Shown in pieces: positions 4,700 through 58,344 of a stretch of DNA of 64,000 bases. The stretch lies in NCBI GenBank assembly GCA_035353815.1, contig DAOQAG010000002.1, positions 18,130 to 82,129 on the forward strand, read 5' to 3'. The notes beneath the pieces are model-generated. The model ran no database searches and was not told the DNA's origin. It saw only the letters and a program-made list of their open reading frames with translations. The number at the start of each line of letters is the position of its first letter. Positions within the stretch are counted from its first letter, which is position 1. A program made the position numbers and the translations under genes. This stretch comes from a bacterium (GTDB lineage Bacteria > Zhuqueibacterota > Zhuqueibacteria > Residuimicrobiales > Residuimicrobiaceae).

Positions 4700-4741
4700 G
4701 GCAAGTCAGCACTTCCGCGTCTTACGCCCCGGCCCGGCCGG

Positions 4742-5098
4742 TCAGCGCTGCCAATCATCCAGAATATCCACGATTTTATCGATGATGTTTTTCTCTTTGA
4801 GCCGGAGCGTGGGCACAGGTACCAAACGGAGATCGCGCCGGGCCAATTCGTCCATACGCTGCATCGAGCGCAGCTCGTCGATGTGCACTTCCAACAGCGC
4901 ATTCTCTCCCTGCAGGGTGAGCAGTTGCTGCTGCAGCTCGCCGTTGCGCCGCAGTTGATGATCCACATTCACCTTCTGCCACACCTTCATAAAAACCAGC
5001 AAGGCGATGATCCCGAGAACGATAAATACCTGCTCGCGGTTGCGCAGGTATTGGCTCTTGTGCGGCCGGGAATGATATCGGGTGCTGGCCATACGCAT
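4742..5098 (-). CDS. ftsL: Cell division protein FtsL-like
   Basis: This small protein has a single TM helix ('VFIVLGIIALLVFM') followed by a coiled-coil/leucine-zipper region. It lies between rsmH and ftsI, the canonical FtsL position. Confidence 0.6.
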   Translation of the reverse strand: MRMASTRYHSRPHKSQYLRNREQVFIVLGIIALLVFMKVWQKVNVDHQLRRNGELQQQLLTLQGENALLEVHIDELRSMQRMDELARRDLRLVPVPTLRLKEKNIIDKIVDILDDWQR

Positions 5099-38245: not shown

Positions 38246-38779
38246 ACCCGTGGTACCTGACCCGACGTGCCCTGTTAACAGCGGCACGGGCCGAAGGGGC
38301 CCGCAGCGGCTGGATGCACACCGGATGCAGGGCCACGCTCTTTGTTCTCCGGGAAAATTTTACTTGTATCGGTCTTTTTGTTTTTGTATACTAAAACGTT
38401 TTAAAAGGCCCTGCTGATAAACGATTGTGAAGATGCGCCGCGCCGCGGAACGGACCGGTCTGCATTCCTGGAACCCTCCTGTCCGCCGCGCCTCTCTTGC
38501 CTGCCCGAGCTTGAAGAATCATCCAAAAGAGAACCGCATTATTCGCAAGGCACCAGCCCGCAGGGCCGCACCGTACATTCCCATAGACCATCTGCAGCCT
38601 ATCGGCCGCAATCCGAATGGGCCACTCATCCGCATGCAGGGAAGGAGGTGACCGCCAAGCTCAAGGAGCGCACGGCAATGCAGGAATTTTCACCGGATAA
38701 CGCCATCCGTTATAGTGATGAGTCCTGGCATGTGTACGTTAACAATCCCTGAATGGTCTCACTAACAAGGAGAGTAAAA

Positions 38780-42743: not shown

Positions 42744-42845
42744 CGTATTCTCCATGAAGGGGATCCGTGCCGGATGCACGGGAAAATATAACGCAATAAA
42801 CCATTCGATTCAATTCCTATTTATCATTTCCTGGAGGTAAGGAAC

Positions 42846-45800
42846 ATGAAACTACCGAACAACCTGCTGGGATGGATTTTGCTGTTGTCGCTCATGCTGG
42901 CGGGTACGCTCTTTTCGGGTACGACCGGCAAGATCGCCGGTACCGTGACCGAAAAGGCGACGGGAGAAACCCTGCCCGGGGCCAACATTCTCGTCAACGG
43001 CACACGCCTGGGTGCAGTGACCGATCTCAGCGGACGGTACACCATTCTTGAGGTCCCGCCCGGGACCTACTCCCTGCAAGTGACCTTCCTGGGGCATCAG
43101 AAGACGATCGTCCATGACGTCCGGGTTTATATTGACCAGACCGCACGCATCGATGTCGCCATGGTCCAGGAAGCGATCGAGATCGGCGATGTGGTAGTGG
43201 TCGCCGAACGGCCGCTGATCAAGCCGGACGTGGCGACCAGTGTCGTGGCGGTTTCCGGCGCGGAGCTCAAGAGCCTGCCGGTCGCCAATGTCACCGACGT
43301 CATGGGCATGCAGGCCGGTATCGACGGCACCAATATCCGCGGGGTCGGCCTCGATGAAGCCCTCTTTATGGTCGATGGTGTGACCATGCGCGATCCACGC
43401 AACAACCAGGCGCTGACCAAGGTCGCTCTGAGCACGGTGCGCGAGATTTCCGTCGAACGCGGCGGATTTAATGCGGAATACGGCCAGGTGCAGTCCGGTA
43501 TCGTCAACGTCGTCACCAATGAAGGCAAGGCCAAGGGTTATTCAGGCAGCCTTAATCTGCGTCTGACACCGCCGACGCGCAAGTATTTCCACGGATCAGA
43601 CATGCCCGATGTCAATTCGACGCAATCCTACTGGCTGCGCCCCTTCTATGACGACGCCGTCTGCTGGACCGGCACTACCAGTGGCGCCTGGGACACCTAC
43701 ACGCAGTCCAAGTATCTCGAGTTCGAGGGCTGGAACGCGGTGTCGCAGCAGCTCTGCACCGACAACGATCCCAGCAACGATCTGACGCCGTTGGCGGCGC
43801 AACGGGTTTTCCAGTATTATACCCGCAAGCGCCAGATCAATGATGAGCCGGATTATGAGATCGATGGCGGCGTCGGCGGTCCGGTGCCGCTGGTTTCGAA
43901 AATGCTGGGCAACCTGCGCTTTTTCGCCTCCTATCGCGGCCAGAAGAGTCTGCTGATCTGGCCGAGCACCCGGCCGGATTATCGGGATTATGATGCCCGC
44001 ATCGTCGTCAATTCCGATATCAGCGATGCCCTCAAGCTGCGCATCTCCGGCCTCTCCGGAAAAATCAGCACCATGGCCGGCAACCGCGCCTCGGAGACCA
44101 CCTACAAGCAGTGGCCTTACGAGCTCGCCGGCACTACCCTCGGCACGGGCGGCTATGCCCTCTTCAATATGTACAGCGACTGGACCTACGGCCTTGCCGA
44201 CCGCACCCACCATGCTCTCTCCGCCAAACTGACCCACATGCTGAACAAATCGACCTATTATGAGGTATCGGCGGAGTATTTCCAGCGCAATTATGATACC
44301 CATTCGCCCTCGATGCGGGATACCTCCAAAACCACCGAGATCATCCCGGGCTACTTTTCCACCGCCACCCCCTATGGCGTGTTTTACGGCATCGACGGCA
44401 TCGTCAGCGGCATCAATGAAGGCAACCAGAACGCTCTCGCCCGCGACAAATCCGATGTCAGCGCGACCACGCTTAAGGCGGACCTGACCAGCCAGGTCAA
44501 TTTCAACAATCTGGTCAAGAGCGGCGTCGAATTCGTCTACAACGACCTCAACCTCAACTATGGCTATATCCGCATGCAAAGCGGCGGCTTGCAATACGAC
44601 AACCAGATCAAGATGCGCGATTTCCCGATCCGGGCTGCCTTTTATCTCCAGGACAAGCTTGAGACCAAGGGCTTCATCCTGAATGCCGGCCTGCGGCTCG
44701 ACTATAGCAACTCGCGCACCGACTGGTGGGCGCTGGATCCCTTCAACGCCCTGTTCTACTCCTATAAATATACGGAAACCGCAGAATTGCCCCTGACCAA
44801 GGCCAAAGGCCAGTGGCAGCTCAGTCCGCGTCTGGGCATCTCCCATCCCATCACCGACCGTTCCAAGCTCTACTTCAACTATGGTCATTTCAAGCAGATG
44901 CCGACCTACGAGTCCCAGTACCGCTTCGACCGTTCTTCCGACAATACCCTGGTTCGTTTTGGCGATCCCAATTTGACCCTGGCCAAGACTATCGCCTACG
45001 AGCTGGGGTACGATCACGATCTCTTTGACGGCCAGATCCTGCTGCAGTTGGCGGCCTTTTACCGCGACATCAGCGACCAGCAGAACACCACCTCCTACCG
45101 CCCGGCCTATGGTACCGCCTACACAGTGACGACGAGCACGGCCTACTCGGATATTCGCGGCTTCGAGTTGACCCTGCGCAAATCGGCGGGACGGTGGTTC
45201 TATGGATTCCTGAATTACACCTACCAGGCGACCTCCAACGGCGCCTTTGGTGAGAATTATGTTTTCGAGGATCCCAAGTCGCAGCAGGATTATGATGAAA
45301 ACACCGTCAATATTTATCAGACGCGCTCGGTGCCCTCTCCGTTCGCGCGCGCCAATCTGACCTTTGCGACCCCGCGGCAGTTTGGGCCGGCCGTGTTCAA
45401 CCATGCGATCTTTGGCGATGTGCTCGCCAACATCCTGCTGCGCTGGAACCAGGGCGGCTGGACGACCTACAATCCCAACAATGCCGGCACGACCAGCTTT
45501 AACAACAACACCAACAACAAGATCCAGAATAATATCCAGTACCTGGATTACTTTGACGCCACGCTGCGGTTGAGCAAGGCCATCCAGATCAACAAGATCA
45601 ATCTGCAGGTTTTTGCTGACATCAACAACCTCTTCAACACCCGGCGCCTCAATAACACCGGTGATCTGAACTACCGCAAGTCCCTGCATCTACCCAAAAG
45701 CGATGCCTATAACAATATTCCCGGTGATGACAAATTCGGCGATTACCGCAAGCCCGGGGTAGCCTGGCAGCCGATGGAGAACGGAGTCGACTTTAACTCG

Positions 45801-46037
45801 ATCCCCTCCTCCAACCGCGCCTGGTATTTCGACAAGTCCTCGGATGCCTACTGGTATTACACCGACAACATCTCGATCCCCGAGATCAAGGATCGCTGGG
45901 CCAAGGTCGAGCAGACCAAGGTGGACCAGGCCATCGAGGACAGGGCCTACATTGATATGCCCAATCCCTCCACTTACTGGTTCCTGAATCCGCGGACCAT
46001 CACCTTCGGCGTTCGTCTCGCCTTCGATATCGATTGA
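42846..46037 (+). CDS. SusC/TonB-dependent-receptor-like outer-membrane protein (CarboxypepD_reg-like N-domain + plug + large beta-barrel)
   Basis: A signal peptide is followed by 'GKIAGTVTEKATGETLPGANILVNGTRLGAVTDLSGRYTILEVPPGTYSLQVTFLGH' (CarboxypepD_reg-like). A plug-like segment ('DGTNIRGVGLDEALFMVDGVTMRD') precedes about 800 aa of alternating beta-strand character. Confidence 0.7.
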   Translation: MKLPNNLLGWILLLSLMLAGTLFSGTTGKIAGTVTEKATGETLPGANILVNGTRLGAVTDLSGRYTILEVPPGTYSLQVTFLGHQKTIVHDVRVYIDQTARIDVAMVQEAIEIGDVVVVAERPLIKPDVATSVVAVSGAELKSLPVANVTDVMGMQAGIDGTNIRGVGLDEALFMVDGVTMRDPRNNQALTKVALSTVREISVERGGFNAEYGQVQSGIVNVVTNEGKAKGYSGSLNLRLTPPTRKYFHGSDMPDVNSTQSYWLRPFYDDAVCWTGTTSGAWDTYTQSKYLEFEGWNAVSQQLCTDNDPSNDLTPLAAQRVFQYYTRKRQINDEPDYEIDGGVGGPVPLVSKMLGNLRFFASYRGQKSLLIWPSTRPDYRDYDARIVVNSDISDALKLRISGLSGKISTMAGNRASETTYKQWPYELAGTTLGTGGYALFNMYSDWTYGLADRTHHALSAKLTHMLNKSTYYEVSAEYFQRNYDTHSPSMRDTSKTTEIIPGYFSTATPYGVFYGIDGIVSGINEGNQNALARDKSDVSATTLKADLTSQVNFNNLVKSGVEFVYNDLNLNYGYIRMQSGGLQYDNQIKMRDFPIRAAFYLQDKLETKGFILNAGLRLDYSNSRTDWWALDPFNALFYSYKYTETAELPLTKAKGQWQLSPRLGISHPITDRSKLYFNYGHFKQMPTYESQYRFDRSSDNTLVRFGDPNLTLAKTIAYELGYDHDLFDGQILLQLAAFYRDISDQQNTTSYRPAYGTAYTVTTSTAYSDIRGFELTLRKSAGRWFYGFLNYTYQATSNGAFGENYVFEDPKSQQDYDENTVNIYQTRSVPSPFARANLTFATPRQFGPAVFNHAIFGDVLANILLRWNQGGWTTYNPNNAGTTSFNNNTNNKIQNNIQYLDYFDATLRLSKAIQINKINLQVFADINNLFNTRRLNNTGDLNYRKSLHLPKSDAYNNIPGDDKFGDYRKPGVAWQPMENGVDFNSIPSSNRAWYFDKSSDAYWYYTDNISIPEIKDRWAKVEQTKVDQAIEDRAYIDMPNPSTYWFLNPRTITFGVRLAFDID

Positions 46038-46072
46038 TGGCCGGCCACCAACCTAACGAATGGGAATGCACG

Positions 46073-48346
46073 ATGAATAAAAAGAAAACCAGACTTTTGC
46101 CCCTGCTGCTGGCATTCTGCGCCCTGCTGCTGGCCGGCAGCCTGAATACGACCGCTGCCCAGGATCTCGAGTGGATCCGCGTGGGCCAGCTCCAGTGCTT
46201 TTTTATGGATTTCGGCAACGAGTGCGAACTCTATCCCTTCACGACGACCAATTTTCTCGCCTGGCCCGCCCAGTACGGCGACGACCAGTACGCCACCCGC
46301 GCCAAGTCGGTCTGGATGGGGGCCACTGATTTTTACGATCCGGTCGAGAAAAAAACCAAATCGGTCAAGGTCATCGGCTCCGGGCCGCGCTACGATACCG
46401 ACAACCAGGCGTCGATGATCTTTTCAACCAGCATCAAACTGATCGGCCGCGAGGAACCTCCCAAGGTGATCGTCGACAACCAGAGCGGCTCCTCCAACAG
46501 CCTTTATGATGTCCTGGATGAGGTTGATCCCAACCTCCCCAGCGACCGCATGGTCGTCATCCGCTATAATACCTCCATGGGCGTCTCGGTCACCAAAAAG
46601 GTGCTCGGCTTCGTCCAGCAAAACCACGACAGCTATTTCATCCACGACTATATATTCAAGAATACCGGCATCTATAATACCAAGGGTGAGATCAACACCC
46701 AGACGCTCAAGAACTTTTGGGTCTATTTCGGTTACCGCTATGCTATGAACGGGGTCTGCTCGAACGGCTACAGCTCGGCCTGGGGCGATTTCGGCATGGA
46801 ATGGGGCTCCAGCACGGTGGCCCACGACTTCGGTCCCCCCTATCGCTCCCGCCCTGACAGCCTGCGCGGCTTCTATGCCTTTTACAGCCCCCTCAAGGGA
46901 AGCTATGGCACGCGCAACGCCGTCACCAGCCTCGGTTACGACTATGATTGGGGTTGCCCGAAGCAGACCGGAGGCGGCCCGAATCTCGATGGGCTGCTGG
47001 GCGCGGCCAAATTCGCCGGCTGCGTCACCTTGCTCGCCTCCAAGGGTCCCGGCGCCCTGTTCAACGTCGACGATTACGGTCAGCCCGCCACGGTGAACTA
47101 TTTCAACGCGGATGGCTCCACAACGACCAATCCGCAGAGCCAGTATGATGAAACGGCGATGAAATTGCGCTGGACCGTTATGACCGAGGGCCATCTGCAA
47201 AAATCGCTTTGGGAAGCCGTCGGCGACGGCCGCTATTATGCGGACTGGCTGAACACCGATCCGCTCCATCCCTCGGGCGGCATGTACGGCCAGGGCTATG
47301 GCCCCTATACCCTCGCCCCCGGCGACAGCATCCACATCATTTTTGCTGAGGGCATGAACGGCCTGAGCTGGGAGAAATGCCGCGAGGTGGGCGCCAACTG
47401 GTATCAGTACTTCGCCGGTACCGGCACCCCCACCCTGGTCAAACCGAACGGCGCAACCACCTCGAGCGTCTCGGAATACCAGAAGGCCTGGGTCTTTTCG
47501 GGTGTCGATTCCACCCTGCAGACCTACAAAAACGCCCGCGCCAATTTCCGTTCCGGCTATAACATCCCCCAGCCGCCGCCGGCGCCGGCCGCTTTCACCG
47601 TCGCCTCGGGTGGCGACGCCATCAGCCTGACCTGGGCCGACAACGCCGACAAGACCCCGCATTTCAACGGCTATGTGATCTACCGTTCGGAAGGGCTGGT
47701 CAAGGATTACCGCGCGGTGTATGAAAAGATCTTTGAATGCAGTGCCGCTGACGTCGTGCACAGCTATGATGACACCTCGGCAACGCGCGGATTTAACTAT
47801 TATTACTATATCCAGTCCAAGGATGACGGGACGCAGAACGACGTCAAACCGGGCGTTCCCCTCTACAGCAGCCGCTTTCTGACGATGACCTCGGTGGCGG
47901 CCAACCTCCTCCGCCCCGCTGGCGATCTGCTCGCTGAAGTACGCGTCGTCCCGAATCCCTACGATATCCGCTCCCGCAAGTGGCAGTTCGGCGAAGTCGG
48001 CCCTTATGACCGGATCATGTTCTATGGCATACCGCCCAAATGCAAGCTGAAAATCTTCACCGACGATGGCACCCTGATCTGGGAGACCCAGCACACCAAT
48101 GGCTCCGGCGACGAGCCCTGGGACTCCAAGACCTCCTCGAACCAGATCGTCGTCAGCGGCATTTATATTCTCTATGTCGAGGTGACCGAGGATATTTACG
48201 CAACCGACGACCGCGTCGCGCGCTATGACATCACCGATGAAAACCTCAAGACGATCTACAAGCAGGGCGACGTGATCTACCAGAAGGGGGACAAGATCTT
48301 CAGCGCCGGGCAATCGACCTTCCGCAAGTTCGTCATTATTCGATAA
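46073..48346 (+). CDS. Secreted hypothetical protein (757 aa) with FN3-like segment and internal T9SS-CTD/FlgD-Ig-like module
   Basis: Signal peptide 'MNKKKTRLLPLLLAFCALLLAGSLNTTAAQ', no catalytic motifs. The start overlaps the upstream stop region. Confidence 0.45.
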   Translation: MNKKKTRLLPLLLAFCALLLAGSLNTTAAQDLEWIRVGQLQCFFMDFGNECELYPFTTTNFLAWPAQYGDDQYATRAKSVWMGATDFYDPVEKKTKSVKVIGSGPRYDTDNQASMIFSTSIKLIGREEPPKVIVDNQSGSSNSLYDVLDEVDPNLPSDRMVVIRYNTSMGVSVTKKVLGFVQQNHDSYFIHDYIFKNTGIYNTKGEINTQTLKNFWVYFGYRYAMNGVCSNGYSSAWGDFGMEWGSSTVAHDFGPPYRSRPDSLRGFYAFYSPLKGSYGTRNAVTSLGYDYDWGCPKQTGGGPNLDGLLGAAKFAGCVTLLASKGPGALFNVDDYGQPATVNYFNADGSTTTNPQSQYDETAMKLRWTVMTEGHLQKSLWEAVGDGRYYADWLNTDPLHPSGGMYGQGYGPYTLAPGDSIHIIFAEGMNGLSWEKCREVGANWYQYFAGTGTPTLVKPNGATTSSVSEYQKAWVFSGVDSTLQTYKNARANFRSGYNIPQPPPAPAAFTVASGGDAISLTWADNADKTPHFNGYVIYRSEGLVKDYRAVYEKIFECSAADVVHSYDDTSATRGFNYYYYIQSKDDGTQNDVKPGVPLYSSRFLTMTSVAANLLRPAGDLLAEVRVVPNPYDIRSRKWQFGEVGPYDRIMFYGIPPKCKLKIFTDDGTLIWETQHTNGSGDEPWDSKTSSNQIVVSGIYILYVEVTEDIYATDDRVARYDITDENLKTIYKQGDVIYQKGDKIFSAGQSTFRKFVIIR

Positions 48347-48359
48347 AGGGAGCAGATAG

Positions 48360-49424
48360 ATGAAGAAAATAACCGCACTCCTCCTGTTCGGGATTTCCCT
48401 GGTCCTGCTCTCCTCCACCGGTGGAAATGCCCAGGACAATCAGAAACTGGCGCAAACCAGTTTCAAATTCCTGAGTGTCGTCTCCGACGCCCAGGGAGCC
48501 GCCATGGCCGGGGCGATGACCAGCCTGCCCATGAACTCCAGTGCTCTCTTTTTCAACCCGGCGGGGATGGCGAACATGGAAAAACGCGCCGACCTCTCGC
48601 TCAGCAATAACGAATGGATCGCCGACATCCGGCATTATACCGTGGGCCTGGCCCTCAATCCCGCCCAGGGCAAATACGGCGTCTTTGGCATGAGCCTGCA
48701 ATATGCCGATTTCGGCAGCTTCATCGGCACCATCGTCAGCAAGGACCCGGGCAATCTCAAGGGATACGAGGAAACGGGCCTCTTTGATCTCAACGCCTAT
48801 GCCGTGGGCATCGGCTACGCCAAGGCCCTGACCGACCGTTTCAGCGTCGGCGGGCAGGTGCGGCTGGCCCATCAGGATCTGGGCGACAGCAGGATCCCCA
48901 ATGAATCGAAAAATATCCCGATTTACAATGATTCGACCCATGCCATCATCGGCTATGAGGATTCGACAGCCACCGGCACCAATCGCCTCAATCCCCTGGT
49001 CTTTGACTTTGGCACCCAGTTCAAGACGGGCGTCAAGAGCCTGGTCTTCGGCATGTCGGTGCGCAACTTCTCCAAGGAAATCCAGTACGTCTATGAGCAG
49101 TTCCAGCTGCCCCTGGTCTTCACCATTGGCATCTCGATGAACCTCATGGATCTTTTCAGGGAGGTCCCCTATCATCAGACCCTGGTGATGAGCGTTGACG
49201 CCAGCCACTATCGCGACCATCCCGAGCAGGTGAAGGTGGGCCTGGATTACCGGATCATGAATACATTCGCCTTGCGCGGCGGATATGTCTCCGCCAGCGA
49301 TGAGAACAGCGGCTTTTCGTTCGGACTCGGCGTCTACAAGGCCGGCTTTGCCTTCGATTACGCCTATACCCCCTACGGGGTCTTCGATAAAGTCCAGCGC
49401 ATGACCGCCCGGATCTCACTGTAA
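48360..49424 (+). CDS. FadL/OMPP1- or PorV-like outer-membrane beta-barrel protein
   Basis: A signal peptide is followed by the N-terminal hatch motif 'DAQGAAMAGAMTSLPMNSSALFFNPAGMA' (G...A...NPAG), characteristic of the FadL/PorV superfamily. Strand periodicity is alternating, and the C-terminus 'TARISL' is aromatic-poor. Confidence 0.5.
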   Translation: MKKITALLLFGISLVLLSSTGGNAQDNQKLAQTSFKFLSVVSDAQGAAMAGAMTSLPMNSSALFFNPAGMANMEKRADLSLSNNEWIADIRHYTVGLALNPAQGKYGVFGMSLQYADFGSFIGTIVSKDPGNLKGYEETGLFDLNAYAVGIGYAKALTDRFSVGGQVRLAHQDLGDSRIPNESKNIPIYNDSTHAIIGYEDSTATGTNRLNPLVFDFGTQFKTGVKSLVFGMSVRNFSKEIQYVYEQFQLPLVFTIGISMNLMDLFREVPYHQTLVMSVDASHYRDHPEQVKVGLDYRIMNTFALRGGYVSASDENSGFSFGLGVYKAGFAFDYAYTPYGVFDKVQRMTARISL

Positions 49425-49444
49425 ACAAGGCCAAGGAGATTACC

Positions 49445-50701
49445 ATGATGAAACCTCGCACCATTTTGCATTTTGTGACCCTCCTGCTGGCGGCAACAGG
49501 GCTGTTCATGGCCGGATGCGAATTCGATGTGGCCGAACCCAAGTGGGAGGAACCGGCGCCCAGCACGGCTGCCGTCACGATCTCCGCCATCGACCCGGCC
49601 GCCGCTGTCGCGGGCGTGAACTATATCACCATCCATGGCGCCAACTTCACCGGGGCGATCGACACCCTGACCATCCAAAGCTCGGACAAGGACACCAGCT
49701 ACCGCTATCTTTATAATGGCGTCTTCTTTGACGATGTCAAGGCCGATGTCGTAGAATACTCGGATACCTTCATCAAGGTGCGCCGGCCCAAACTGGCCAC
49801 CGAGGCCTGTCAGGTCAAGGTCGTCTCCAACAAGGCCCTGCTGACCGCCCAATATGCCCAGCCCTACCGCATCGACGGGGTGGTCGGCCGCGTCGGCATG
49901 TTTAACGAAGACCTGCCCCTGGCCGTGACCGCGGTCGACGCCAATGAAAATCTCTACGTCGTCGAGACCAACACCCGCTACATCCAGAAAATCACCCCGG
50001 GCGGCGACAAGAGCAATACCGGCACCGCCCTGCGCGTGCCGTACGATGCCAGCATCGGCCCGGATGGCAACCTCTATCTGGCTGGCAACAACCGTGCGAT
50101 CGACCGTCTGGATGTAGCCACCGGCACGGTCGCCCGCTGGGTCAACCTCCCCTCAGGAAAAGTCGTCAGGTTTCTCGATTTCGACGCCAGCGGCTATTGC
50201 TTCTCAGGCGGCACCCGTACCGACCTGGTGGTGACTCCCTTCGATCTGGCCACCACGTCGATCTCGGCCGGCTTTTATGCCACCCAGGAGATTCTCGCCA
50301 TCCGCTGCTATAATGGCGCTGTATACGTCGCCGTCCGCGCGACGGCCGCAGATCCGGTCAAGATCTTCCGCCATGCCATCGGCGACAAGGGCAGCGTCGG
50401 CGTGCAGGAACTGGTGGTCGATCTCTCCACCGCCAGCGCATCTGCTGGCCGTACCCTCAAGGCGATCTCTTTCGCCGCGGACGGCACCCTGCTGCTGGCA
50501 ACGGATGCCGTTGACCCGCTGCTGAGCTACTCTCCGGCTACGGGCAAGATGGACTTTTACTATAAAGGGATTCTCAATCCCTACTGCAAGCACCTGGCGT
50601 GGGGCACCGGAAACTACCTCTATATGATTTGCGGGGATGATACCGCGGGGGAGGAGTGGACGGTGTACAAGGTTGATATGGGGATGGCCGCCGGCCGGTG
50701 A
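49445..50701 (+). CDS. Lipoprotein with IPT/TIG domain and NHL-type beta-propeller repeats
   Basis: Lipobox 'LFMAGC'. An IPT/TIG-like segment 'AVTISAIDPAAAVAGVNYITIHGANFTG' is followed by repeated 'NLYVVETN'/'GPDGNLYLAGNN' propeller-like blades. Confidence 0.5.
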   Translation: MMKPRTILHFVTLLLAATGLFMAGCEFDVAEPKWEEPAPSTAAVTISAIDPAAAVAGVNYITIHGANFTGAIDTLTIQSSDKDTSYRYLYNGVFFDDVKADVVEYSDTFIKVRRPKLATEACQVKVVSNKALLTAQYAQPYRIDGVVGRVGMFNEDLPLAVTAVDANENLYVVETNTRYIQKITPGGDKSNTGTALRVPYDASIGPDGNLYLAGNNRAIDRLDVATGTVARWVNLPSGKVVRFLDFDASGYCFSGGTRTDLVVTPFDLATTSISAGFYATQEILAIRCYNGAVYVAVRATAADPVKIFRHAIGDKGSVGVQELVVDLSTASASAGRTLKAISFAADGTLLLATDAVDPLLSYSPATGKMDFYYKGILNPYCKHLAWGTGNYLYMICGDDTAGEEWTVYKVDMGMAAGR

Positions 50702-50781
50702 GCCTCCCGCTACAACCCAGCCAAGGCCTGTGGTTCCCCCACAGGCCTTTTTGTTGAACATCGACTTTATGAGGATCATGC

Positions 50782-52713
50782 ATGCATGTTCAGATCTCCA
50801 GGGCGGTGACTCTCCTTGTGCTCGCAGGCGGCACGATGCTCGGTGCGCAGACGGCGGGCAATTGTTTTCTCGAGGATTTTCTGCCGCGAACCGCGATGCT
50901 ACCGCCGTCCCAAACCGCGGTAAAAACTGCGGTATCTCCGGGGGTGACCATTACCATCTCCACCCGCGACACCCTCGCCCGGGTTTCGCCCTATATCTTC
51001 GGCAATGCCCTGGCCGCCTGGGTCGGCAATGATGTGATGAACAAGGTGCTCATCGGCCATATGCAAAAGCTCGCCCCCACCCTGATCCGCTATCCGGGCG
51101 GCAGCTGGGGCGATATCTTTTTCTGGAATGGCGATCCGGGCCACTTGCCCTCCACCATCCCCGATGGCGCCAACAACGGCGCGCCGATTGCCCTCTCGCC
51201 GCAATACGGCGTGAATAGCTGGACGACCACGGTGGCCAACTACTATTCGCTGCGCGATCAGGTCAACGCCACTCAGGGACTGATCACCATCAATTATGGC
51301 TATGCCCGCTATGGCCTCGGCGACAAACCAGCGGAAGAAGCCGCCCATCTCGCCGCCGAATGGGTCCGTCATGATGCCGGCCGCACCCGATTCTGGGAAA
51401 TCGGCAACGAGAACGCCGGTCCGTGGGAGGCGGGCTGGCAAATCGATACCACGCGCAACAAGGACGGCCAACCCAAAATCATCACCGGGGCCTTATATGG
51501 ACGTCACTTCAGGATCTTCGCCGATTCCATGCGCGCTGCCGCGGCTGAACTGGACGAAACCATTTACATCGGCGGACAGATCCTGCACTATGATGGCACA
51601 ACGAGCTGGAATATCGCGGACCGGACCTGGAATGAGGGATTCTTGCGGGAGGTTGGAGATGCCGCTGATTTTTATGTGATGCATAACTATTTCGGCAGCA
51701 CGGGCGTGAGCATGGCCAAAAGCCAGATCGACCTGGCGCGCAATGAGATCAAGAAAAACATCACCTTTATCCGTCAGGATATCGCCCGTCAACAAGCCTT
51801 CAGCAAACCTGTCGCACTGACGGAATGGAACATGGTCGATCACCCCCAGGCCGCAACCTCCATCGCCAACGGCATGCAAGCCGTCGTGCTGACCTGCGAA
51901 ATGATCCAGAACAACTTTGGCATGTCCGCCCGTTGGCTGCTCGTCCACTGGGAGTCGGGCGGGATGTTCTATAAAGGCGCCAATGCCGCCATCCCGGCCT
52001 GGAGTCCGCGCCCCGACTTTTTTTATCTCTACTACCTGCAGCATTTCACCGGGGACCACAGCGTCAAATCGTCGGTCAGCGGCAGCAGCGATATCCTCTC
52101 CTATGCCACCACCTTTGCCTCCGGCGAGCTGGCGGTCGTGATCGTCAACAAGGGCGCCACGGAACAAACCCTGGAGCTGTCGCCGCAAGAGTTCCAGCCG
52201 GGCGACCGCTATTATCTTTATTCGCTCACAGGAACAAGCAACGAACAGTGGGCCCAAAAGGTCACGGTCAATGGCACCGGACCATCCGGAGCAGCCTGGG
52301 GACCGGTCGAGGGACTGGCTCATTTGCCGGCTCTGGCCTATGAAACGGGCGGCGGCATCCGCTTTTCCTCACCGCCGCTCTCGGTGCAATATGTGCTCAT
52401 CAGCAGCCCTGCCGCCGGCGTGACCTCCGCGCCGGCCGGCGCCCCCGAGCACTTTGATCTCGGCCAGAATTATCCCAATCCCTTCAACGCCCGGACGATG
52501 ATCTCGTACGCACTACCCCGTGAGAGTCCGGTGCACCTGCGCGTCCTCGACCTGAACGGCCGTGAGGTCGCGCTTTTGCTCGATGGCAGTGTACAGCAAG
52601 CGGGCGTGCATCGCATCGCCTTCGACGCCAGCCGGCTCAGCAGCGGCCTCTACCTCTGCCGGCTCGAGGCGGGCAGCCGGGCCGCGACGCGCAAGATGCT
52701 GCTGGTCCGGTAA
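50782..52713 (+). CDS. Clan GH-A glycoside hydrolase (GH51-like, possible alpha-L-arabinofuranosidase) with T9SS C-terminal sorting domain
   Basis: Signal peptide; 'IRYPGGSWGD', 'WEIGNENAGPWEAGWQ' (acid/base NE) and 'LTEWNMVDH' (nucleophile E) resemble GH51/clan GH-A. C-terminal 'LGQNYPNPFNARTMISYAL...GLYLCRL' is a T9SS CTD. Confidence 0.6.
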   Translation: MHVQISRAVTLLVLAGGTMLGAQTAGNCFLEDFLPRTAMLPPSQTAVKTAVSPGVTITISTRDTLARVSPYIFGNALAAWVGNDVMNKVLIGHMQKLAPTLIRYPGGSWGDIFFWNGDPGHLPSTIPDGANNGAPIALSPQYGVNSWTTTVANYYSLRDQVNATQGLITINYGYARYGLGDKPAEEAAHLAAEWVRHDAGRTRFWEIGNENAGPWEAGWQIDTTRNKDGQPKIITGALYGRHFRIFADSMRAAAAELDETIYIGGQILHYDGTTSWNIADRTWNEGFLREVGDAADFYVMHNYFGSTGVSMAKSQIDLARNEIKKNITFIRQDIARQQAFSKPVALTEWNMVDHPQAATSIANGMQAVVLTCEMIQNNFGMSARWLLVHWESGGMFYKGANAAIPAWSPRPDFFYLYYLQHFTGDHSVKSSVSGSSDILSYATTFASGELAVVIVNKGATEQTLELSPQEFQPGDRYYLYSLTGTSNEQWAQKVTVNGTGPSGAAWGPVEGLAHLPALAYETGGGIRFSSPPLSVQYVLISSPAAGVTSAPAGAPEHFDLGQNYPNPFNARTMISYALPRESPVHLRVLDLNGREVALLLDGSVQQAGVHRIAFDASRLSSGLYLCRLEAGSRAATRKMLLVR

Positions 52714-52727
52714 GGCCCTAAACGCGT

Positions 52728-52864
52728 GCGCCCACCCGGGTAATTCGGGTGGGCGCCAGATGAACAGGGGCTGCGGCTTGCGGAGCTGCAGTCAAAGGTT
52801 GCATTTGCGCCTGCCAGCATAATCCGGGTGGGCGCCAGATGAATAGGGGCTGTGGCTTCCGCAG
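52728..52864. repeat. Pair of ~45-bp direct repeats, each adjacent to a GC-rich hairpin (REP-like)
   Basis: Copy 1 is at 52741-52785 and copy 2 at 52820-52864 (about 87% identical). A perfect 11-bp hairpin gcgcccacccg/cgggtgggcgc spans 52728-52756. Both lie in the convergent intergenic region without a T-run. Confidence 0.6.
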
Positions 52865-52880
52865 GTACGGCCCGCACAAC

Positions 52881-55334
52881 CTACTCGCTGCGAATCTCCA
52901 CAACTCCCTCCTGCAATCCCTCCGCACGGGCGGTCAGCACGATCGTGCCCGCCTGCTCGTTCGCCCGGACCACACAAAGACACTTGCCGTTGAAGGCCTT
53001 GCGCTGGTCGGCCTTGAAGGACTCCATGCTGGTTTGCAGACCATTGTCAACGCCGGCAATGGTTGCCGGTCCCTGCAGCGAGAACTTGACCAGAGTATCC
53101 GCACGCGGTACCAGCACGCCGTTGGCATCGACAATATCGATGGTGACAAAAGAGAGATCGCGGCCGTCGGCCTTGATGCGGGCGCGGTCGGCCGTCAGCA
53201 CGATCCTGGCCGCAGCGCCGGCCGTCTGCACGCGTTCCTCGAGCACCGGGACTCCGCCCTTGTAGGCCACGGCCTTGAGCGTGCCCGCCGTCCACGGCAC
53301 CCGCCAGACCAGCTGGAAGGTAGCGGCGGTCTTGACCTTTTTGCCCAGGGAGGTTCCGTTCAGGAAAAGCTCCACCTCTTCCTGGTTGGTATAGGCCCAG
53401 ACATCGATGAGTTCACCAGGCTTCCAGTTCCAGTGCGGAAAGAGGTGCAGCATCGGAGCTTTGGTCCATTCCGCCTGGTAAAAGTAATAGCCATCCTTGG
53501 GGAAGCCCGCGAGATCGATCAGGCCGAAATAGGAGCTCCGCGCCGGCCAGGGATAGGGCGTTGGCTCGCCCAGATAGTCAAAGCCGGTCCAGATGAATAT
53601 GCCGGAGACGAAAGGAGAATCCCGTACGATCCGCCAGGTATCAACATGGGTGGAACCCCAGGGAACGTGGCAGTTGTCATAGGCAGAACAGGTCAGATCG
53701 GGATTCATCGGCCCGATTTTGTTCCATTCGATCGGCCAGATCCGCACCGAGTCGGAGGGCATGTCGTAGGATCCCCGCGTGGCGATCGCCGAGTTGGTCT
53801 CGCTGGCGACCAGTTTCAGTCCCGGGTACTGCTTCGGGAAGTTCGGCAGGTCCTTCTCATGATAATTGCGGCCGACAATGTCCAGGGCACCGGAACGGAT
53901 GAGGCGGTTCTGCAAGGAGGGATCATTACAGGCCGAGGTGATCGGCCGCGTCGGATCGAGGCCGCGGACGATGCCGGCCAGCTCCTGCGCCATGGCGGTG
54001 CCGCTGTCGTCCCACTGCTCGGGGATCTCATTGCCAATGCTCCACAACACTACACTCGGGTGGTTGCGGTCGCGCAGGATCAGATCTTCGAGATCGCGGC
54101 GGTGCCATTCATCCCAGTCGAGATGATAGTCGAAGGGATTCTTCTCCATCTTCCACATATCAAAGGCCTCGTCCATCACCAGAAATCCCATCCTGTCGCA
54201 GAGATCGAGCAGCTCGGGGGCCGGAGGATTGTGCGAGGTGCGGATCGCATTGCAGCCCATAGCCTTGAGCAGCTCGAGCTGCCGCTCGAGGGCGCGCTCA
54301 TTGACCGCCGCGCCCAGACAGCCGAGGTCGTGGTGATTGCACACACCAAGCAGTTTCATCGCCACACCGTTGAGGGAAAATCCCTTCTCGAGATCGAAAA
54401 CGAAGCTGCGGATGCCAAAGCTCGTCTCGCAGCGATCCTCTTCCCCGCCCTGCGCCCGGATCCGGGTGACCGCGCGGTAAAGGACCGGGCTGGCCACCGA
54501 CCAGAGCGCAGGCTGTGGTAGTGCCGTTTTCTGCTCGACCGTGGCCGCCGCACCCGGCTGCAGGTTCTTTTCATCGCGCAGGGTCGCCACCCTCTTGCCG
54601 GCAGGATCGACGATATCGGTCTCCACCGTCACCTGCTGCGCCTGTTCCGTGGCATTGCATACCCGCGTCTGCAGCCGGATCTCCGCCTTTTCCGCCGAAA
54701 CCACCGGCGTGGAGACCCAGGTGCCCCAATGATCGACGTGGATGCGCCCGGTGACGGTCAGCCAGACATTGCGATATATGCCCGAGCCGGAATACCAGCG
54801 GGAATTGGGCTGCTGCGAATTGTCGACGCGCACGGCCACAAGATTGGCACGGGCGCCGAACCGGAGCCACGGGGTGAGCTCGTAACGGAACGAGCTGTAG
54901 CCGTAGGGCCGCTTGCCGAGGTAATGGCCATTGATCCAGACCTCGGCGTTGCGGTAGACGCCGTCGAAATCGATAAAGATGCTGCGGCCCGAGTCGCCTG
55001 ACGCCAGCGCAAAGCTCTTGCGGTACCAGCCGATGCCGCCCGGCAAGGCGCCGCCACCGGTGGTAGCGGGATTATTCTGGTCGAAGCTCCCCTCGATGCT
55101 CCAGTCATGCGGCAGGTCGAGGGTGCGCCATCCGCTGTCGGCGAAACCGGGTTCCTGGGCGCCGGGAAGATCTCCGAGGTTGAATTTCCATGCCTTGGTG
55201 AATCGCTCGATACGGCGCGACGGCGCCGCGGGGCCGGCGCAGCCGCTCGCTAGGGCGGCCAACGCCGCCAGCAGGGCAAATGAGAGAGAGATGGCCATCT
55301 TGCGCGGGATTTTCATGGTGTTCCTCTTCTTCAC
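52881..55334 (-). CDS. GH2 family beta-galactosidase-like glycoside hydrolase (lipoprotein signal)
   Basis: Lipobox 'LASGCAG'. Present are a GH2 sugar-binding N-domain ('WRTLDLPHDWSIEG'), an Ig-like domain, and a TIM barrel with 'NHPSVVLWSIGNE' acid/base and nucleophile regions. 817 aa. Confidence 0.8.
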   Translation of the reverse strand: MKKRNTMKIPRKMAISLSFALLAALAALASGCAGPAAPSRRIERFTKAWKFNLGDLPGAQEPGFADSGWRTLDLPHDWSIEGSFDQNNPATTGGGALPGGIGWYRKSFALASGDSGRSIFIDFDGVYRNAEVWINGHYLGKRPYGYSSFRYELTPWLRFGARANLVAVRVDNSQQPNSRWYSGSGIYRNVWLTVTGRIHVDHWGTWVSTPVVSAEKAEIRLQTRVCNATEQAQQVTVETDIVDPAGKRVATLRDEKNLQPGAAATVEQKTALPQPALWSVASPVLYRAVTRIRAQGGEEDRCETSFGIRSFVFDLEKGFSLNGVAMKLLGVCNHHDLGCLGAAVNERALERQLELLKAMGCNAIRTSHNPPAPELLDLCDRMGFLVMDEAFDMWKMEKNPFDYHLDWDEWHRRDLEDLILRDRNHPSVVLWSIGNEIPEQWDDSGTAMAQELAGIVRGLDPTRPITSACNDPSLQNRLIRSGALDIVGRNYHEKDLPNFPKQYPGLKLVASETNSAIATRGSYDMPSDSVRIWPIEWNKIGPMNPDLTCSAYDNCHVPWGSTHVDTWRIVRDSPFVSGIFIWTGFDYLGEPTPYPWPARSSYFGLIDLAGFPKDGYYFYQAEWTKAPMLHLFPHWNWKPGELIDVWAYTNQEEVELFLNGTSLGKKVKTAATFQLVWRVPWTAGTLKAVAYKGGVPVLEERVQTAGAAARIVLTADRARIKADGRDLSFVTIDIVDANGVLVPRADTLVKFSLQGPATIAGVDNGLQTSMESFKADQRKAFNGKCLCVVRANEQAGTIVLTARAEGLQEGVVEIRSE

Positions 55335-58177
55335 GGGTTCATGGGGACGGTCGTGGCCGCACCGCTATAGCGGACGGTGGCGGAGGGCACCGCCGCGAAA
55401 TCGAGCGGCATCGGATGTTGTTCGCTGACCCAGACGATCTCGAAGGTGCGCTCGCGGAGCATGCCGGGGAATTCGCCCTGACGCGCGCCCAGGGTCAGCT
55501 TGCGCTCCTTCTCCGACCAGGTGATCGGAAGCGTGGCATATTGCCCCTGCTCATAGTTGTAATTGATCCCCTCATCCTCATAGAGGGTGAACGAGCCATC
55601 CCGGCCGGTATAGACATAAAGGCGGATGGGATCGGCGGGTTTTTCCATCACATACTGCAGCTCCGGGCCGAAGGGGAGGATCGCCCCTTCGCGCACGTAC
55701 AACGGGATCTCGCTCAACGGCGCATCCGCGGTAATCTCGCGCCCGCCCGCGATGAATTGCCCCGACTTGAGCGCATACCAGCCGGTGCCGGCCGGGAGAT
55801 AGAGCATGCGGGTGCGCGCCATGTAGGTGGTGACCGGATTGACCAGGATCGACGGACCGAACATGTATTGATCGCCGATCGCGCGGACCTTCAGGTCCCC
55901 GGGGAAATCCATGACCAGGGCGCGCATGAAGGTATAGTCGTGCAGGGTCACCTGTGCGGCCAGGGAGTAAATGTAGGGCAGCATGCGGTAGCGCAGCTGA
56001 TCGTAGGCGAGCATGGCCTGGTAGGCCGGGTGCCCGGCCGGAGCAATGTTAAACATTTCGCGATAGGGATACTCGCCATGGACGCGCAGCAGCGGCACAA
56101 AGGTTCCGAACTGGAACCAGCGGGCATTGAGCTCGCGCCATTCCTCGAGGTCCTCGGGCTTGACATTGCGTTCAAAGCGCGGCTCGACCGAGAAACCGCC
56201 GATATCCATGGTCCACCAGGGCACACCGGAGAGGTTGAAATTGAGCCCGGCGGAGATCTGCGCCTTGAGATCATACCACCGTGTGACGATATCGCCGCTC
56301 CAGGTGGCGGCAGCATAGCGCTGCTGGCCGGCGAAGACCGAGCGCGTGAGGATGAAGACCCGCTGGTCCGGCCGGGTCTCGCGCTGATGCTCGTAAATGC
56401 CGCCCGAATGGACCAGGGTGTAGCTGTTGAGGTAACGCGAAGAGGAGCCCAGTCCGGTCGGGCCAATACGCCGCCGGGTCTCCTCGAGCGAGAGGTTGCT
56501 GTGGATGTCCGGTTCGGTGGCGTCGAGCCACCAGGCATCGAAGCCCTTGCTGAAGAGATGGGTATTGATCTGATCCCAGTAGAGCTGGCGCGCCTCAGGG
56601 CGATAGGGGTCATAGAAGGAGCTGGTGTAGCCCGGGCCCACCCAGTCGCGTTCTTTCACCTGGACGTTGCGGGGATAGAGCCAGCCGCGGTCCGCGAAGG
56701 CCTGATAGTTGGCCGTGCCGATGTAGAATTTGGGCCAGACCGAGATCATGATCTGGGTGTGCAGATCCCGGTGGAGCTGGTCGACCATGCCTTTGGGATC
56801 GGGGAAACGGGCGGGATCGAATTCATGGCTGCCCCACTGGTCTTCCTTCCAGTAGAACCAGTCGAGGACGATATTGTCGAAGGGGATCTTGCGGGCGCGG
56901 AACTCCCGGACGACCGAGAGAATCTCCTCCTGCGAGGTGTAGCGCTGGCGGCTTTGCCACAAGCCGAGGGCCCATTTGGGCATCATCGGCGCATGTCCGG
57001 TGAGGGTGCGATAGCCATGGATCACCTCATCGAGGTTGCGGCCATGGACGAAATAATAGTCGATCTGATCGCCGATCTGGGACCACAGCGAGAGGCTGTT
57101 CGGCGGCGTGATCCGGTCGGGGGGCAGATAGGTGAGGCCGATATAGCCGCCCATGTGAATCCATTCGATGCGGAGATCATAGCGTTTGCCGGCGATCATC
57201 TGCAGGCGCGGCAGGGTGGTCCAGGGCAGCCAGTTCTGGCGGTAGCCGTCGGCGACCAGTTTGCCGTCCAGCCACATCCGGTAAAAACCGGAGGCATAGA
57301 GGCGGAACTTGAACTCGCCGCTCTCCGGCGCTTCGATCAGCCCGGAGTAGCGCACGCTGCCGACCTGCTCCTTGAACCCGTCGGGATAGGAATCGTTGAC
57401 ATCGATGAATTCGTGGGCGATGCGCGGTTCGGTGCGCTCGGTGAAGAGGTTGGTGAAATCGGTGTTGCGGAAATACTCGGCGCTGAGGCCGCCGGCAAGC
57501 CCCTTCCGGTCATAGAGTTTGAGTCCGGAGAGCTGCTGAAAATCGCGGGTATCACCGAACCGGGTCTGCGAGGTATTGTCCCAGAGCAGCCCGTAATTCC
57601 TGCTCGAAACCAGAAAGGGATTGACGTCGAGGATGTTGAGCTGAAAAAGATCGACATCCTGTCCTTTGTAGTTCATCATCTCATTCTGCTGCTCGCCGAG
57701 GCCGTAAAAGGCCTCATCGGCCGGCGAATGGAAGAGCTGCTGGATGTGGTCGGCCTGCTCTTCCATGACCACCGCCGGGGTGAAGATGCGACCGTTGGCG
57801 CGCTCGGCCAGGATCAGCTTGCCGGTGCGGTCATAAAAAGAGACGGCCCCGGTGGTCTTGTGGACCCGGACGCGGAGTTTGGCGGTGGTCACTTCGAGGT
57901 AGAGGCCCCGCTCTTTGACGCGCCAGGCCGGGACGGCTTCGCGCAGCGGCACGCGCATCAGGCTGGGCCGGGCCGAAAAGGTATCAGCCGGTGAGGCGAC
58001 GACGCGGATGAGTTCGTCGCCGCAGACCTCGATCTTGAGACGGGCGGTCCCGGAAGCCAGCTTTTTGTCGAGATGGAGGAGCAGGCCGTCGGGGAGTGTT
58101 TCATAGCTGAAGGCGGCAGACGCCAAAGAAAAAAGCAGGGCGGCCGCGAGCAGGATCAGGGTGGGAGCGCGACGCAT
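55331..58177 (-). CDS. GH31 family alpha-glucosidase/alpha-xylosidase with PA14 insert
   Basis: Signal peptide 'MRRAPTLILLAAALLFSLASAA'. PA14-like segment 'GGLSAEYFRNTDF...FKFRLYASGFYRMWLDGKLV'. GH31 catalytic region 'DIVLDWFYWKEDQWGSHEFD' and 'WSGDI'. Confidence 0.8.
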   Translation of the reverse strand: MRRAPTLILLAAALLFSLASAAFSYETLPDGLLLHLDKKLASGTARLKIEVCGDELIRVVASPADTFSARPSLMRVPLREAVPAWRVKERGLYLEVTTAKLRVRVHKTTGAVSFYDRTGKLILAERANGRIFTPAVVMEEQADHIQQLFHSPADEAFYGLGEQQNEMMNYKGQDVDLFQLNILDVNPFLVSSRNYGLLWDNTSQTRFGDTRDFQQLSGLKLYDRKGLAGGLSAEYFRNTDFTNLFTERTEPRIAHEFIDVNDSYPDGFKEQVGSVRYSGLIEAPESGEFKFRLYASGFYRMWLDGKLVADGYRQNWLPWTTLPRLQMIAGKRYDLRIEWIHMGGYIGLTYLPPDRITPPNSLSLWSQIGDQIDYYFVHGRNLDEVIHGYRTLTGHAPMMPKWALGLWQSRQRYTSQEEILSVVREFRARKIPFDNIVLDWFYWKEDQWGSHEFDPARFPDPKGMVDQLHRDLHTQIMISVWPKFYIGTANYQAFADRGWLYPRNVQVKERDWVGPGYTSSFYDPYRPEARQLYWDQINTHLFSKGFDAWWLDATEPDIHSNLSLEETRRRIGPTGLGSSSRYLNSYTLVHSGGIYEHQRETRPDQRVFILTRSVFAGQQRYAAATWSGDIVTRWYDLKAQISAGLNFNLSGVPWWTMDIGGFSVEPRFERNVKPEDLEEWRELNARWFQFGTFVPLLRVHGEYPYREMFNIAPAGHPAYQAMLAYDQLRYRMLPYIYSLAAQVTLHDYTFMRALVMDFPGDLKVRAIGDQYMFGPSILVNPVTTYMARTRMLYLPAGTGWYALKSGQFIAGGREITADAPLSEIPLYVREGAILPFGPELQYVMEKPADPIRLYVYTGRDGSFTLYEDEGINYNYEQGQYATLPITWSEKERKLTLGARQGEFPGMLRERTFEIVWVSEQHPMPLDFAAVPSATVRYSGAATTVPMNP

Positions 58178-58344
58178 GAATTCTTCCTTTCCTCGATTGG
58201 TAAATACAGCAGGAGGCCCGGCGCGGGCCGGCTGTTCAATATACAAACAAGAAGTTAAAAAAGCCAAGAATAATCCTTTGATTTGGCCCCGAATTGTCGT
58301 ATATTGACAAATGATTCATTATTCACAATACTGAGAACCACTGC

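Follow-up and report, generated by a model that had tools for sequence, protein, structure and literature searches.

Xyloglucan (XyG) is a major polymer of the plant cell wall, and its breakdown by bacteria is understood mainly from the SusC/D loci of Bacteroides and from loci of Cellvibrio and Xanthomonas. The xyloglucan utilisation locus (XyGUL) of Bacteroides ovatus comprises the glycoside hydrolases (GHs) BoGH31A, BoGH2A, BoGH5A, GH43A/B and GH3A/B together with SusC/D and SGBP-B, and it uses GH43 rather than GH51 for arabinose. The Cellvibrio and Xanthomonas loci hold a GH35 beta-galactosidase, a GH95 fucosidase, and GH74 or GH5 endo-enzymes that are secreted by the type II secretion system. 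In this study, we analyse three glycosidase genes (GHA643, GH2 and GH31) and the adjacent outer-membrane genes in a 64,000-nucleotide stretch of bacterial DNA (the window; C2:18130-82129 in a 4.37-Mb metagenome-assembled genome (MAG) that is 94.5% complete). The window has a G+C content of 60%, and activated-sludge metagenome runs contain its DNA in full. We propose, with a probability of about 0.65, that the three genes form the enzymatic half of a XyG utilisation system in an uncultured bacterium, probably of the phylum KSB1, and that the adjacent cassette, which lacks SusD, is the transport half.

A preliminary description of this DNA had placed three glycosidase open reading frames (ORFs) at 50782-58267, and all three were confirmed there. 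Its interpretation was upheld in part: xyloglucan is well supported as the substrate, and the idea of a side-chain-trimming trio with a GH51 enzyme, lying directly downstream of the outer-membrane operon, needs correction. The genes under study are as follows.

42846-50701, plus strand: import cassette encoding a TonB-dependent receptor (TBDR), a 770-aa secreted protein (unk770), a barrel of the PorV/PorQ family (PorV-like) and a TIG-domain lipoprotein
Gene starts in the plus-strand operon: TBDR 42846, 770-aa protein 46034, PorV/PorQ-family barrel 48360, TIG lipoprotein 49445, then GHA643
50782-52713, plus strand: GHA643, 643 aa, predicted secreted retaining glycosidase of clan GH-A, apparently of an unclassified family
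52881-55334, minus strand: GH2, 817 aa, GalB-type beta-galactosidase with a lipoprotein signal peptide
55331-58177, minus strand: GH31, predicted alpha-xylosidase that begins with a type-I signal peptide; the frame extends without a stop to a TTG at 58267 (978 aa)

In the proposed system, GHA643 would be delivered by the type IX secretion system (T9SS) to the cell surface or the medium, where it would act on polymeric XyG before import. The TBDR, the 770-aa protein, the PorV-like barrel and the TIG lipoprotein would serve as the transport half, and GH31 and GH2 would process the imported oligosaccharides in the periplasm. Beta-glucosidase and further endoglucanase functions would be supplied from elsewhere in the genome.

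The predicted GH31 alpha-xylosidase and GH2 beta-galactosidase

The GH31 protein contains the Pfam domains Gal_mutarotas_2 (PF13802), PA14 (PF07691), the TIM barrel PF01055 (E=2e-98), the C-terminal domain PF21365 and DUF5110 (PF17137). Its ORF begins at the TTG, and translation more likely starts from the ATG at 58177, with which the protein has a type-I signal peptide.

57116-57490, minus strand: PA14 insert in the N-terminal domain of GH31 (PF07691, E=3.5e-15, aa 260-384 of the 978-aa ORF)

The protein matches three biochemically characterised and solved xyloglucan alpha-xylosidases over its full length: BoGH31A (5jou, E=1e-295), the Xanthomonas alpha-xylosidase (7kmp, 2e-283) and CjXyl31A (2xvg, 4e-260). 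The bit scores to these alpha-xylosidases are 987, 946 and 869, compared to at most 306 for other GH31s. Alpha-glucosidases match at 1e-40 to 1e-58 with at most 202 bits, each at least 680 bits below the alpha-xylosidase match. GH31 is collinear with BoGH31A throughout, the PA14 insert included, and its nucleophile motif WWLDATEP lies opposite WWMDASEP. The PA14-bearing architecture of Bacteroides alpha-xylosidases that had been recognised in this gene is thus borne out by the full-length alignment with BoGH31A, which places it in the Bacteroides/Cellvibrio/Xanthomonas type. By homology GH31, which is the sole gene of its type in the genome, is an alpha-xylosidase of the PA14-bearing clade and is predicted to remove alpha-1,6-linked xylose from the non-reducing end of XyG oligosaccharides. 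A second GH31 type, in which PA14 follows the catalytic barrel (aa ~643-773) and is not N-terminal, is encoded beside the alpha-xylosidase in two related loci (L022:6865-9681 and L025:12382-15201).

The GH2 protein has all five domains of its family (PF02837, PF00703, PF02836, PF16355 and PF18565) and scores 951 bits on the NCBIfam GalB equivalog model NF041463, for which the cut-off is 900. Every one of its best matches in the PDB is a beta-galactosidase (7cwd and 4ypj at E<=1e-225), and the GNE found at aa 434-436 would fit the acid/base site. The beta-galactosidase-like enzyme of the preliminary description is therefore, by homology, predicted with some assurance to be a beta-galactosidase. 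Read from gene context, its specificity would be, like that of BoGH2A, for the beta-1,2-galactose of the L-type side chains of xyloglucan. The signal peptide of GH2 is of the lipoprotein type and ends in LASGC; as GH31 and GH2 both carry Sec signal peptides (type I and lipoprotein, respectively) and no T9SS domain, both would act in the periplasm on imported oligosaccharides.

Conservation of the gene grouping and its xyloglucan context

The synteny set consisted of 80 loci from other species with a GHA643 homologue, in which neighbours were counted within 10 kb. A GH31 homologue was found in 26 of the 80 and a GH2 homologue in 33, and 17 of the 24 closest loci (L021-L044) have both. The latter include the cultured Rosettibacter primus, Melioribacter sp. 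OK-6-Me and sp. Ez-97 as well as a Calditrichaceae MAG. The order met most often in the closest homologues is unk770-PorV-like-TIG-GH31-GH2-GHA643 on one strand, and it occurs in Ignavibacteriota (including Rosettibacter primus and Melioribacter spp.) and in KSB1; the Calditrichaceae MAG has the GH31-GH2-GHA part of this order. This synteny ties the hydrolases to the cassette at 42846-50701, as had been suggested.

The gene order of the window is shared by two congeners. A genome from another genus of the same family (G007) has TIG-GH31-GH2-GHA643 on one strand, and a third congener (G003) has PorV-like-GH31-GH2-T9SS618-TIG-GHA643 on one strand, where T9SS618 is a further T9SS cargo protein that is described below. 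The window-type order, in which the cassette is followed directly by GHA643, is also found in three other lineages (L031, L037 and L077). A tree built from the catalytic domain places the window within a clade of 15 loci that has good support. Both GH31 and GH2 are present in 10 of the 15; two of the five loci without both genes lie on contigs of at most 9 kb. The grouping of GHA643, GH31 and GH2 is meaningful and not a matter of chance.

The xyloglucan reading is well supported. Homologues of GHA643 in Bacteroidales (~50% identity), which also bear the T9SS C-terminal domain (CTD), are found in canonical xyloglucan polysaccharide utilisation loci (PULs). The PUL of Draconibacterium sediminis that holds a GHA homologue encodes a protein that bears the xyloglucan-binding domain of SGBP-B, a BACON-bearing GH5, a GH97 and two SASA esterases, as well as two GH29 enzymes, a GH43, a GH42, a GH51 and a GH2. 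In a Paludibacter MAG the homologue lies among a GH74-like T9SS enzyme, a GH43, an esterase, a GH31 and a GH3. L-fucose isomerase genes are located just downstream of the hydrolase set in two loci from genomes of the KSB1 order (L022:12334-15759 and L102:2677-4080). One of them is followed by a gene for an MFS transporter; this hints at fucosylated xyloglucan, though there is no fucosidase in either locus. In the phylum Calditrichota, Caldithrix abyssi grows on xyloglucan (PMC5317091).

GHA643, a clan GH-A enzyme with predicted export

GHA643 consists of a signal peptide (aa 1-22), a barrel and beta-sandwich (aa ~25-545), a linker and a T9SS type-A CTD (aa 564-643).

52471-52710, plus strand: T9SS type-A C-terminal sorting domain of GHA643 (PF18962, TIGR04183)
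51409-51411, plus strand: codon of E210, the predicted acid/base (WEIGNE), invariant in alignments of 68, 97 and 51 sequences and aligned to the GNE of GH51
51823-51825, plus strand: codon of E348, the predicted nucleophile (LTEWN), invariant in the 68-sequence alignment, at least 90% conserved in the other two and aligned to the (D)EWN of GH51

The CTD scores 35 bits on PF18962 (Por_Secre_tail, aa 564-639; cut-off 27) and 34 bits on TIGR04183 (cut-off 23); with the signal peptide, this substantiates the T9SS tail first noticed on one of the enzymes. Pfam and NCBIfam detect the sorting domain alone, with no Pfam glycosidase match even at E<=10. The hallmarks of clan GH-A (R103, N209-E210, H301/Y303, E348 and W385) are kept down to 25% identity, and because of this conservation GHA643 is predicted to be an active retaining glycosidase. 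Homology to the clan identifies E210 and E348 as its putative, intact retaining catalytic pair.

An AlphaFold model of GHA643 that was built from the 68-sequence alignment (pLDDT 89.5) has a TIM barrel, a beta-sandwich formed from N- and C-terminal strands, a disordered linker and the CTD. Foldseek and a second, independent comparison of all structures against all ranked GH51 arabinofuranosidases (Z 31.1) level with GH79 enzymes (Z 30.5-30.9) as fold matches at 12-18% identity, and GH30, GH44 and GH39 followed at Z 21-25. A search of PDB sequences with the family profile also resulted in a tie between GH79 (2.5e-7 for the best match, 7eyo) and GH51 (3.7e-7), and a language-model atlas listed both GH51-type and GH79-type clusters.

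The GH51 arabinofuranosidases 3ug3, 1pz3 and 2c7f resemble GHA643 in their TIM barrel and beta-sandwich (rmsd, root-mean-square deviation, 2.8 Å over 403 residues) and in the RYPGG, GNE and EWN motifs, which align. Unlike them, GHA643 has an extra invariant N-terminal NCFLxDF segment, a CTD and predicted export. The GH51 models PF22848 and PF06964 gave no match to GHA643 at E<=10. For the true GH51s of L055 and L068 the matches are at 1e-28 to 1e-49, and PF22848 is detected faintly in part of the GHA643 family. In a remote hidden Markov model (HMM) alignment the GGSW of GHA643 lies opposite the GGNF of GH51, with Ser in place of the Asn, and there is no Glu at beta-1. The beta-1 Glu and the GGN Asn of GH51 are residues that we take to bind arabinofuranose in the -1 subsite. 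The GH79 beta-glucuronidase, heparanase and hyaluronidase (5la7, 7eyo and 5l77) are alike in fold and profile, and GH79 includes endo-acting members. GHA643 differs from these in that the GH79 models PF03662 and PF16862 gave no Pfam match, in that the nucleophile context is EWN as in GH51, and in that the gene context implies no uronic-acid polymer. The term GH51-like is thus fair for the fold of GHA643, and the membership in GH51 that it had suggested is not borne out. Judged by comparison with Pfam, NCBIfam and the PDB, GHA643 appears to represent an unclassified family that is equidistant from GH51 and GH79. GH173, which we set beside GHA643 by description only, is a recent clan GH-A family of beta-galactosidases that is nearest to GH30 and GH5 and occurs in pectin-type PULs (PMC8810776).

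The family is large, with 2,899 near-length matches among the 8,000 candidates scored, 446 matching stretches in GTDB species representatives, and 612 clusters at 50% identity, 152 of them with E<=1e-30. In none of 51 diverse relatives is this module recognised as a GH catalytic domain, and 34 of the 51 have the CTD; some of the wider relatives carry the carbohydrate-binding modules (CBMs) CBM6, CBM35, CBM2 or CBM64. Searches of the literature on new clan GH-A families, on T9SS-linked XyGULs and on xyloglucan use by Melioribacter, Rosettibacter and KSB1 turned up no description of the GHA643 family or of this locus.

The N-terminal segment NCFLxDF..P follows the signal peptide at aa 27-33 (50860-50880) and is invariant across the family. 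A similar segment, TNHFLGDF..K.A..PPS, opens a T9SS-exported GH5 (L025:8726-10273) that is encoded beside the GHA gene in an Ignavibacteriota MAG, and the NxFLxDF-type segment may be a module shared by GHA643 and the T9SS-GH5. In a search of the whole genome that contains the window, no secreted protein other than GHA643 carried the motif.

The role of GHA643

The preliminary description assigned all three enzymes to the trimming of oligosaccharide side chains. This part of it is not supported for the third enzyme, which carries an export signal and whose relatives have CBMs that point to a polymer at the surface. Because of its predicted export, GHA643 probably acts on polymer at the cell surface and not on imported oligosaccharides. 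T9SS export, the CBM fusions in relatives and its standing as the sole exported catalytic enzyme of the minimal conserved set argue for a probable extracellular action on polymer.

Cleavage of the beta-1,4-glucan backbone is our tentative assignment, which we hold at somewhat less than even odds. The window locus encodes no recognised endo-xyloglucanase (GH5_4, GH74, GH9, GH12, GH16 or GH44), and GHA643 may fill this role. A T9SS-exported GH16 occupies the slot after GH31-GH2 in one related genome that is without GHA643 (G019; L102, G019:C9, 5041-6117), and a T9SS-GH5 adjoins the GHA gene in another (L025). The fusions of GH43 with GHA also look like pairs of a debrancher and an endo-enzyme. 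Removal of side-chain sugars at the level of the polymer is possible as well and only slightly less probable; the nearest motifs to those of GHA643 are the GH51 motifs, and a GH43 with a C2 domain is the commonest direct neighbour of GHA in Bacteroidales. Some other role is unlikely. The evidence from replacement of GHA643 in its slot points both ways, as the slot holds the T9SS-GH16 in G019 and a canonical secreted GH51 in G023 (L101, G023:C9, 4388-5941). A small GH43-like gene lies after or within GH31-GH2 in a further genome without GHA643 (L105 in G014, 3957-4943).

The rival that survives best returns to the preliminary description and takes GHA643 for a GH51-type alpha-L-arabinofuranosidase or a similar exo-glycosidase that strips arabinofuranose, galactose and xylose together with GH31 and GH2, the backbone being cut by GH5 and GH9 enzymes encoded elsewhere. 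In its favour, GH51 shares first place among the fold matches (Z 31.1), GHA643 resembles it in the motifs RYPGG, GNE..GPW and EWN, PF22848 appears faintly in part of the family, a canonical GH51 sits in the equivalent slot of G023, a GH43 with a C2 domain adjoins close homologues or is fused with them, and the genome has other GH5 and GH9 genes. However, GH79 ties with GH51 in the fold and profile searches, and the Pfam search finds true GH51s in related loci (1e-28 to 1e-49) but gives no GH51 match to GHA643 at E<=10. The Ser of GGSW and the absence of a counterpart of the beta-1 Glu in the HMM alignments speak in the same direction, where the roles of these residues are those assumed above. 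Moreover, XyG PULs with a GHA homologue already encode GH51, GH43 and GH127, and T9SS export would be odd for an enzyme acting on imported oligosaccharides. We regard this rival as unlikely, though well short of negligible.

Evidence against the proposal and other substrates

Several observations weigh against a dedicated XyG system with GHA643 as its exported enzyme. A full-length GH31 orthologue is encoded in 15 related genomes, and in six of these the GHA query had no full-length match, from which GHA643 would be an accessory rather than a core part, and the GH51 in the slot of G023 favours a side-chain role. The locus is without a recognised endo-xyloglucanase, beta-glucosidase or regulator, and a hairpin followed by a T-rich stretch in the 80-bp gap separates GHA643 from the cassette. 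Elsewhere in the genome there are eight matches to GH5 models (seven over the cut-off), a GH9, a true GH51 and ~12 GH3 matches; because of the GH5, GH9 and GH3 matches GHA643 need not be the backbone enzyme. The Paludibacter GH74-like query gave no tblastn match in the genome, and the GH44 model PF12891 gave none there or in the control genomes, so that its negative carries no information. Many Prolixibacteraceae homologues adjoin an AraC regulator only, and one Prolixibacteraceae copy is accompanied by GH26 mannanases, GH30 and GH39, which means that the GHA family is not exclusive to XyG. Distant paralogues of GHA643 are fused to GH10 or GH26, and GH13 genes are present in two XyG-type loci.

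Some of these observations would suit a different explanation, in which GHA643 is a general hemicellulase (acting for example on xylan, mannan or mixed-linkage glucan) whose placement beside GH31 and GH2 is only a loose one, and in which the locus scavenges XyG oligosaccharides released by the community. The contexts with GH26, GH30 and GH39, the GH10 and GH26 fusions of paralogues, the six related genomes with GH31 orthologues and no GHA, and the presence in relatives of CBM6 and CBM35, which are common binders of xylan and mannan, all fit it. Yet the forms fused to GH10 or CBM6 are outgroup paralogues (36-41% identity) that lie beyond a long, fully supported branch, and core members are linked repeatedly to GH31/GH2 or to markers of XyG PULs, in four phyla and in several gene orders. 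We therefore judge this explanation improbable. It is hardly credible that GH31 is an alpha-glucosidase and that the gene set targets alpha-glucans or another alpha-glycoside instead of xyloglucan, for although GH13 genes adjoin in the two related loci and the window has an alpha-amylase gene (30648-32702), GH31 scores 987 bits to an alpha-xylosidase as against at most 202 bits to any alpha-glucosidase, has the PA14 insert and full-length collinearity with BoGH31A, and the Bacteroidales loci hold XyG-specific partner genes such as that for the SGBP-B xyloglucan-binding domain.

The surface machinery

A search with the SusD/RagB model PF07980 gave no match in the 94.5%-complete genome and did match the B. 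thetaiotaomicron control, in agreement with the absence of SusD from the locus that the preliminary description had noted. The receptor scores 73 bits on the SusC/RagA model TIGR04056 (cut-off 368), and its N-terminal part alone matches. Paralogous TBDR-unk770-PorV-like cassettes are found elsewhere in the genome (contigs C1, C46, C20, C10, C12 and C111), and the region C1:44-66 kb has a tandem run of at least three TBDR-unk770 pairs, one of which is accompanied by PorV-like and TIG genes. The TBDR-unk770-PorV-like cassette is thus a multi-copy, PUL-like paradigm in this genome. The TIG lipoprotein (49445-50701) has acidic residues after the lipobox Cys, C-EFDVAEPKWEEP, and in this recalls the signal by which Bacteroidota lipoproteins are exported to the surface; the GH2 lipoprotein is without an acidic stretch after its Cys (C-AGPAAPSRR).

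A further exported protein is encoded upstream of the cassette.

38753-40609, plus strand: T9SS618, a T9SS cargo protein with two tandem ~255-aa beta-jelly-roll modules that are concanavalin-A-like/GH16-like

The two modules are 75% identical, and the model of the module (pLDDT 87.5) matches Teredinibacter TtX122, GH16 glucanases and the lectin domains of calreticulin at TM ~0.5. No ExDxxE motif was seen in the modules. Proteins of this type exist in single-module (~365 aa) and double-module (~610 aa) forms; they accompany GHA643 homologues in five loci, in G003 inside the operon. T9SS618 is a probable accessory protein and, from its modelled fold, a candidate surface glycan-binding partner.

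Taken furthest, GHA643 might found a new GH family and act as the surface enzyme that makes the first cut in xyloglucan in several phyla of the Fibrobacterota-Chlorobiota-Bacteroidota (FCB) group, its CTD docking on the PorV/PorQ-like barrel beside the receptor to give a SusD-free "utilisome" made from T9SS attachment parts. We offer this as a speculation with the odds well against it.

Gene layout and neighbouring features

The stop codon of GH31 overlaps the GTG start of GH2 by 4 nt (GTGA), and the two genes form a minus-strand unit that is divergent from a TetR-TolC-HlyD-ABC2 efflux operon and convergent with the outer-membrane operon. The enzymes had been described as directly downstream of this operon, which is correct for GHA643 (plus strand, 80-bp gap) and incorrect for GH2 and GH31 (minus strand, convergent). 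GH31-GH2 is a separate transcription unit here, and relatives usually have a single co-directional operon. Compared to the commonest order, the pair would have been inverted in this genus, with the result that the set would be transcribed from two convergent units.

50723-50749, plus strand: terminator-like hairpin between the TIG lipoprotein gene and GHA643, with an 11-bp stem followed by TTTGTT
52714-52880, no strand assigned: convergent intergenic spacer between GHA643 and GH2, 167 bp, with two ~45-bp direct repeats and GC-rich inverted partners

The hairpin could attenuate read-through into GHA643, or it could mark a rearrangement joint. The direct repeats of the spacer lie at 52741-52785 and 52820-52864 with the core gggtgggcgccagatgaa.aggggctg.ggctt, the first having a perfect GC-rich inverted partner. 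They sit where the gene order departs from that commonest in relatives and may be an element like the repetitive extragenic palindromes (REP-like) at an inversion breakpoint. Divergent from the receptor gene, at 40719-42779 on the minus strand, lies a gene for a membrane-anchored GDSL/SGNH hydrolase with fused TPR repeats. Congeners have this gene in the same place, one Ignavibacteriota locus (L025) also contains it, and its product is a possible acetyl-esterase or sensor tied to the system.

Comparison with known systems

The most useful product of this analysis is an apparently unclassified, exported family of clan GH-A that recurs in xyloglucan loci, canonical Bacteroidales PULs included. 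Its characterisation could add a family to CAZy and a missing step to xyloglucan processing. The operon is present in cultured Melioribacter and Rosettibacter strains, which makes the question directly testable.

The locus resembles the B. ovatus XyGUL in its PA14-bearing GH31 and its GH2 beta-galactosidase, in the TonB-dependent importer that is encoded beside the enzymes and in the predicted display of one enzyme outside the cell. Unlike in B. ovatus, no SusD was found in the genome, the receptor falls well short of the SusC cut-off, and the surface proteins are the 770-aa protein, the PorV-like barrel and the TIG lipoprotein. Export of the surface enzyme, which is not a GH5_4, would be through the T9SS and not by lipidation, the locus is without GH3, GH43 and a hybrid two-component system (HTCS), and GH31 and GH2 are on the opposite strand.

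With respect to the Cellvibrio and Xanthomonas loci, we know of no PorV-like or TIG cassette, T9SS cargo or GHA643-type enzyme in them. The loci of Cellvibrio japonicus and Xanthomonas (Xyl31A/XacXyl31; PMC8245568, PMC5816542) are similar to the present one in being SusD-less and in having a TonB-dependent transporter and a PA14-type GH31. SusD-less xyloglucan loci are thus already known from Proteobacteria, and what is found here is a probable XyGUL on machinery other than SusC/D, in which the same periplasmic chemistry of GH31 and GH2 is combined with different outer-membrane machinery and recurs in KSB1, Ignavibacteriota and Calditrichota.

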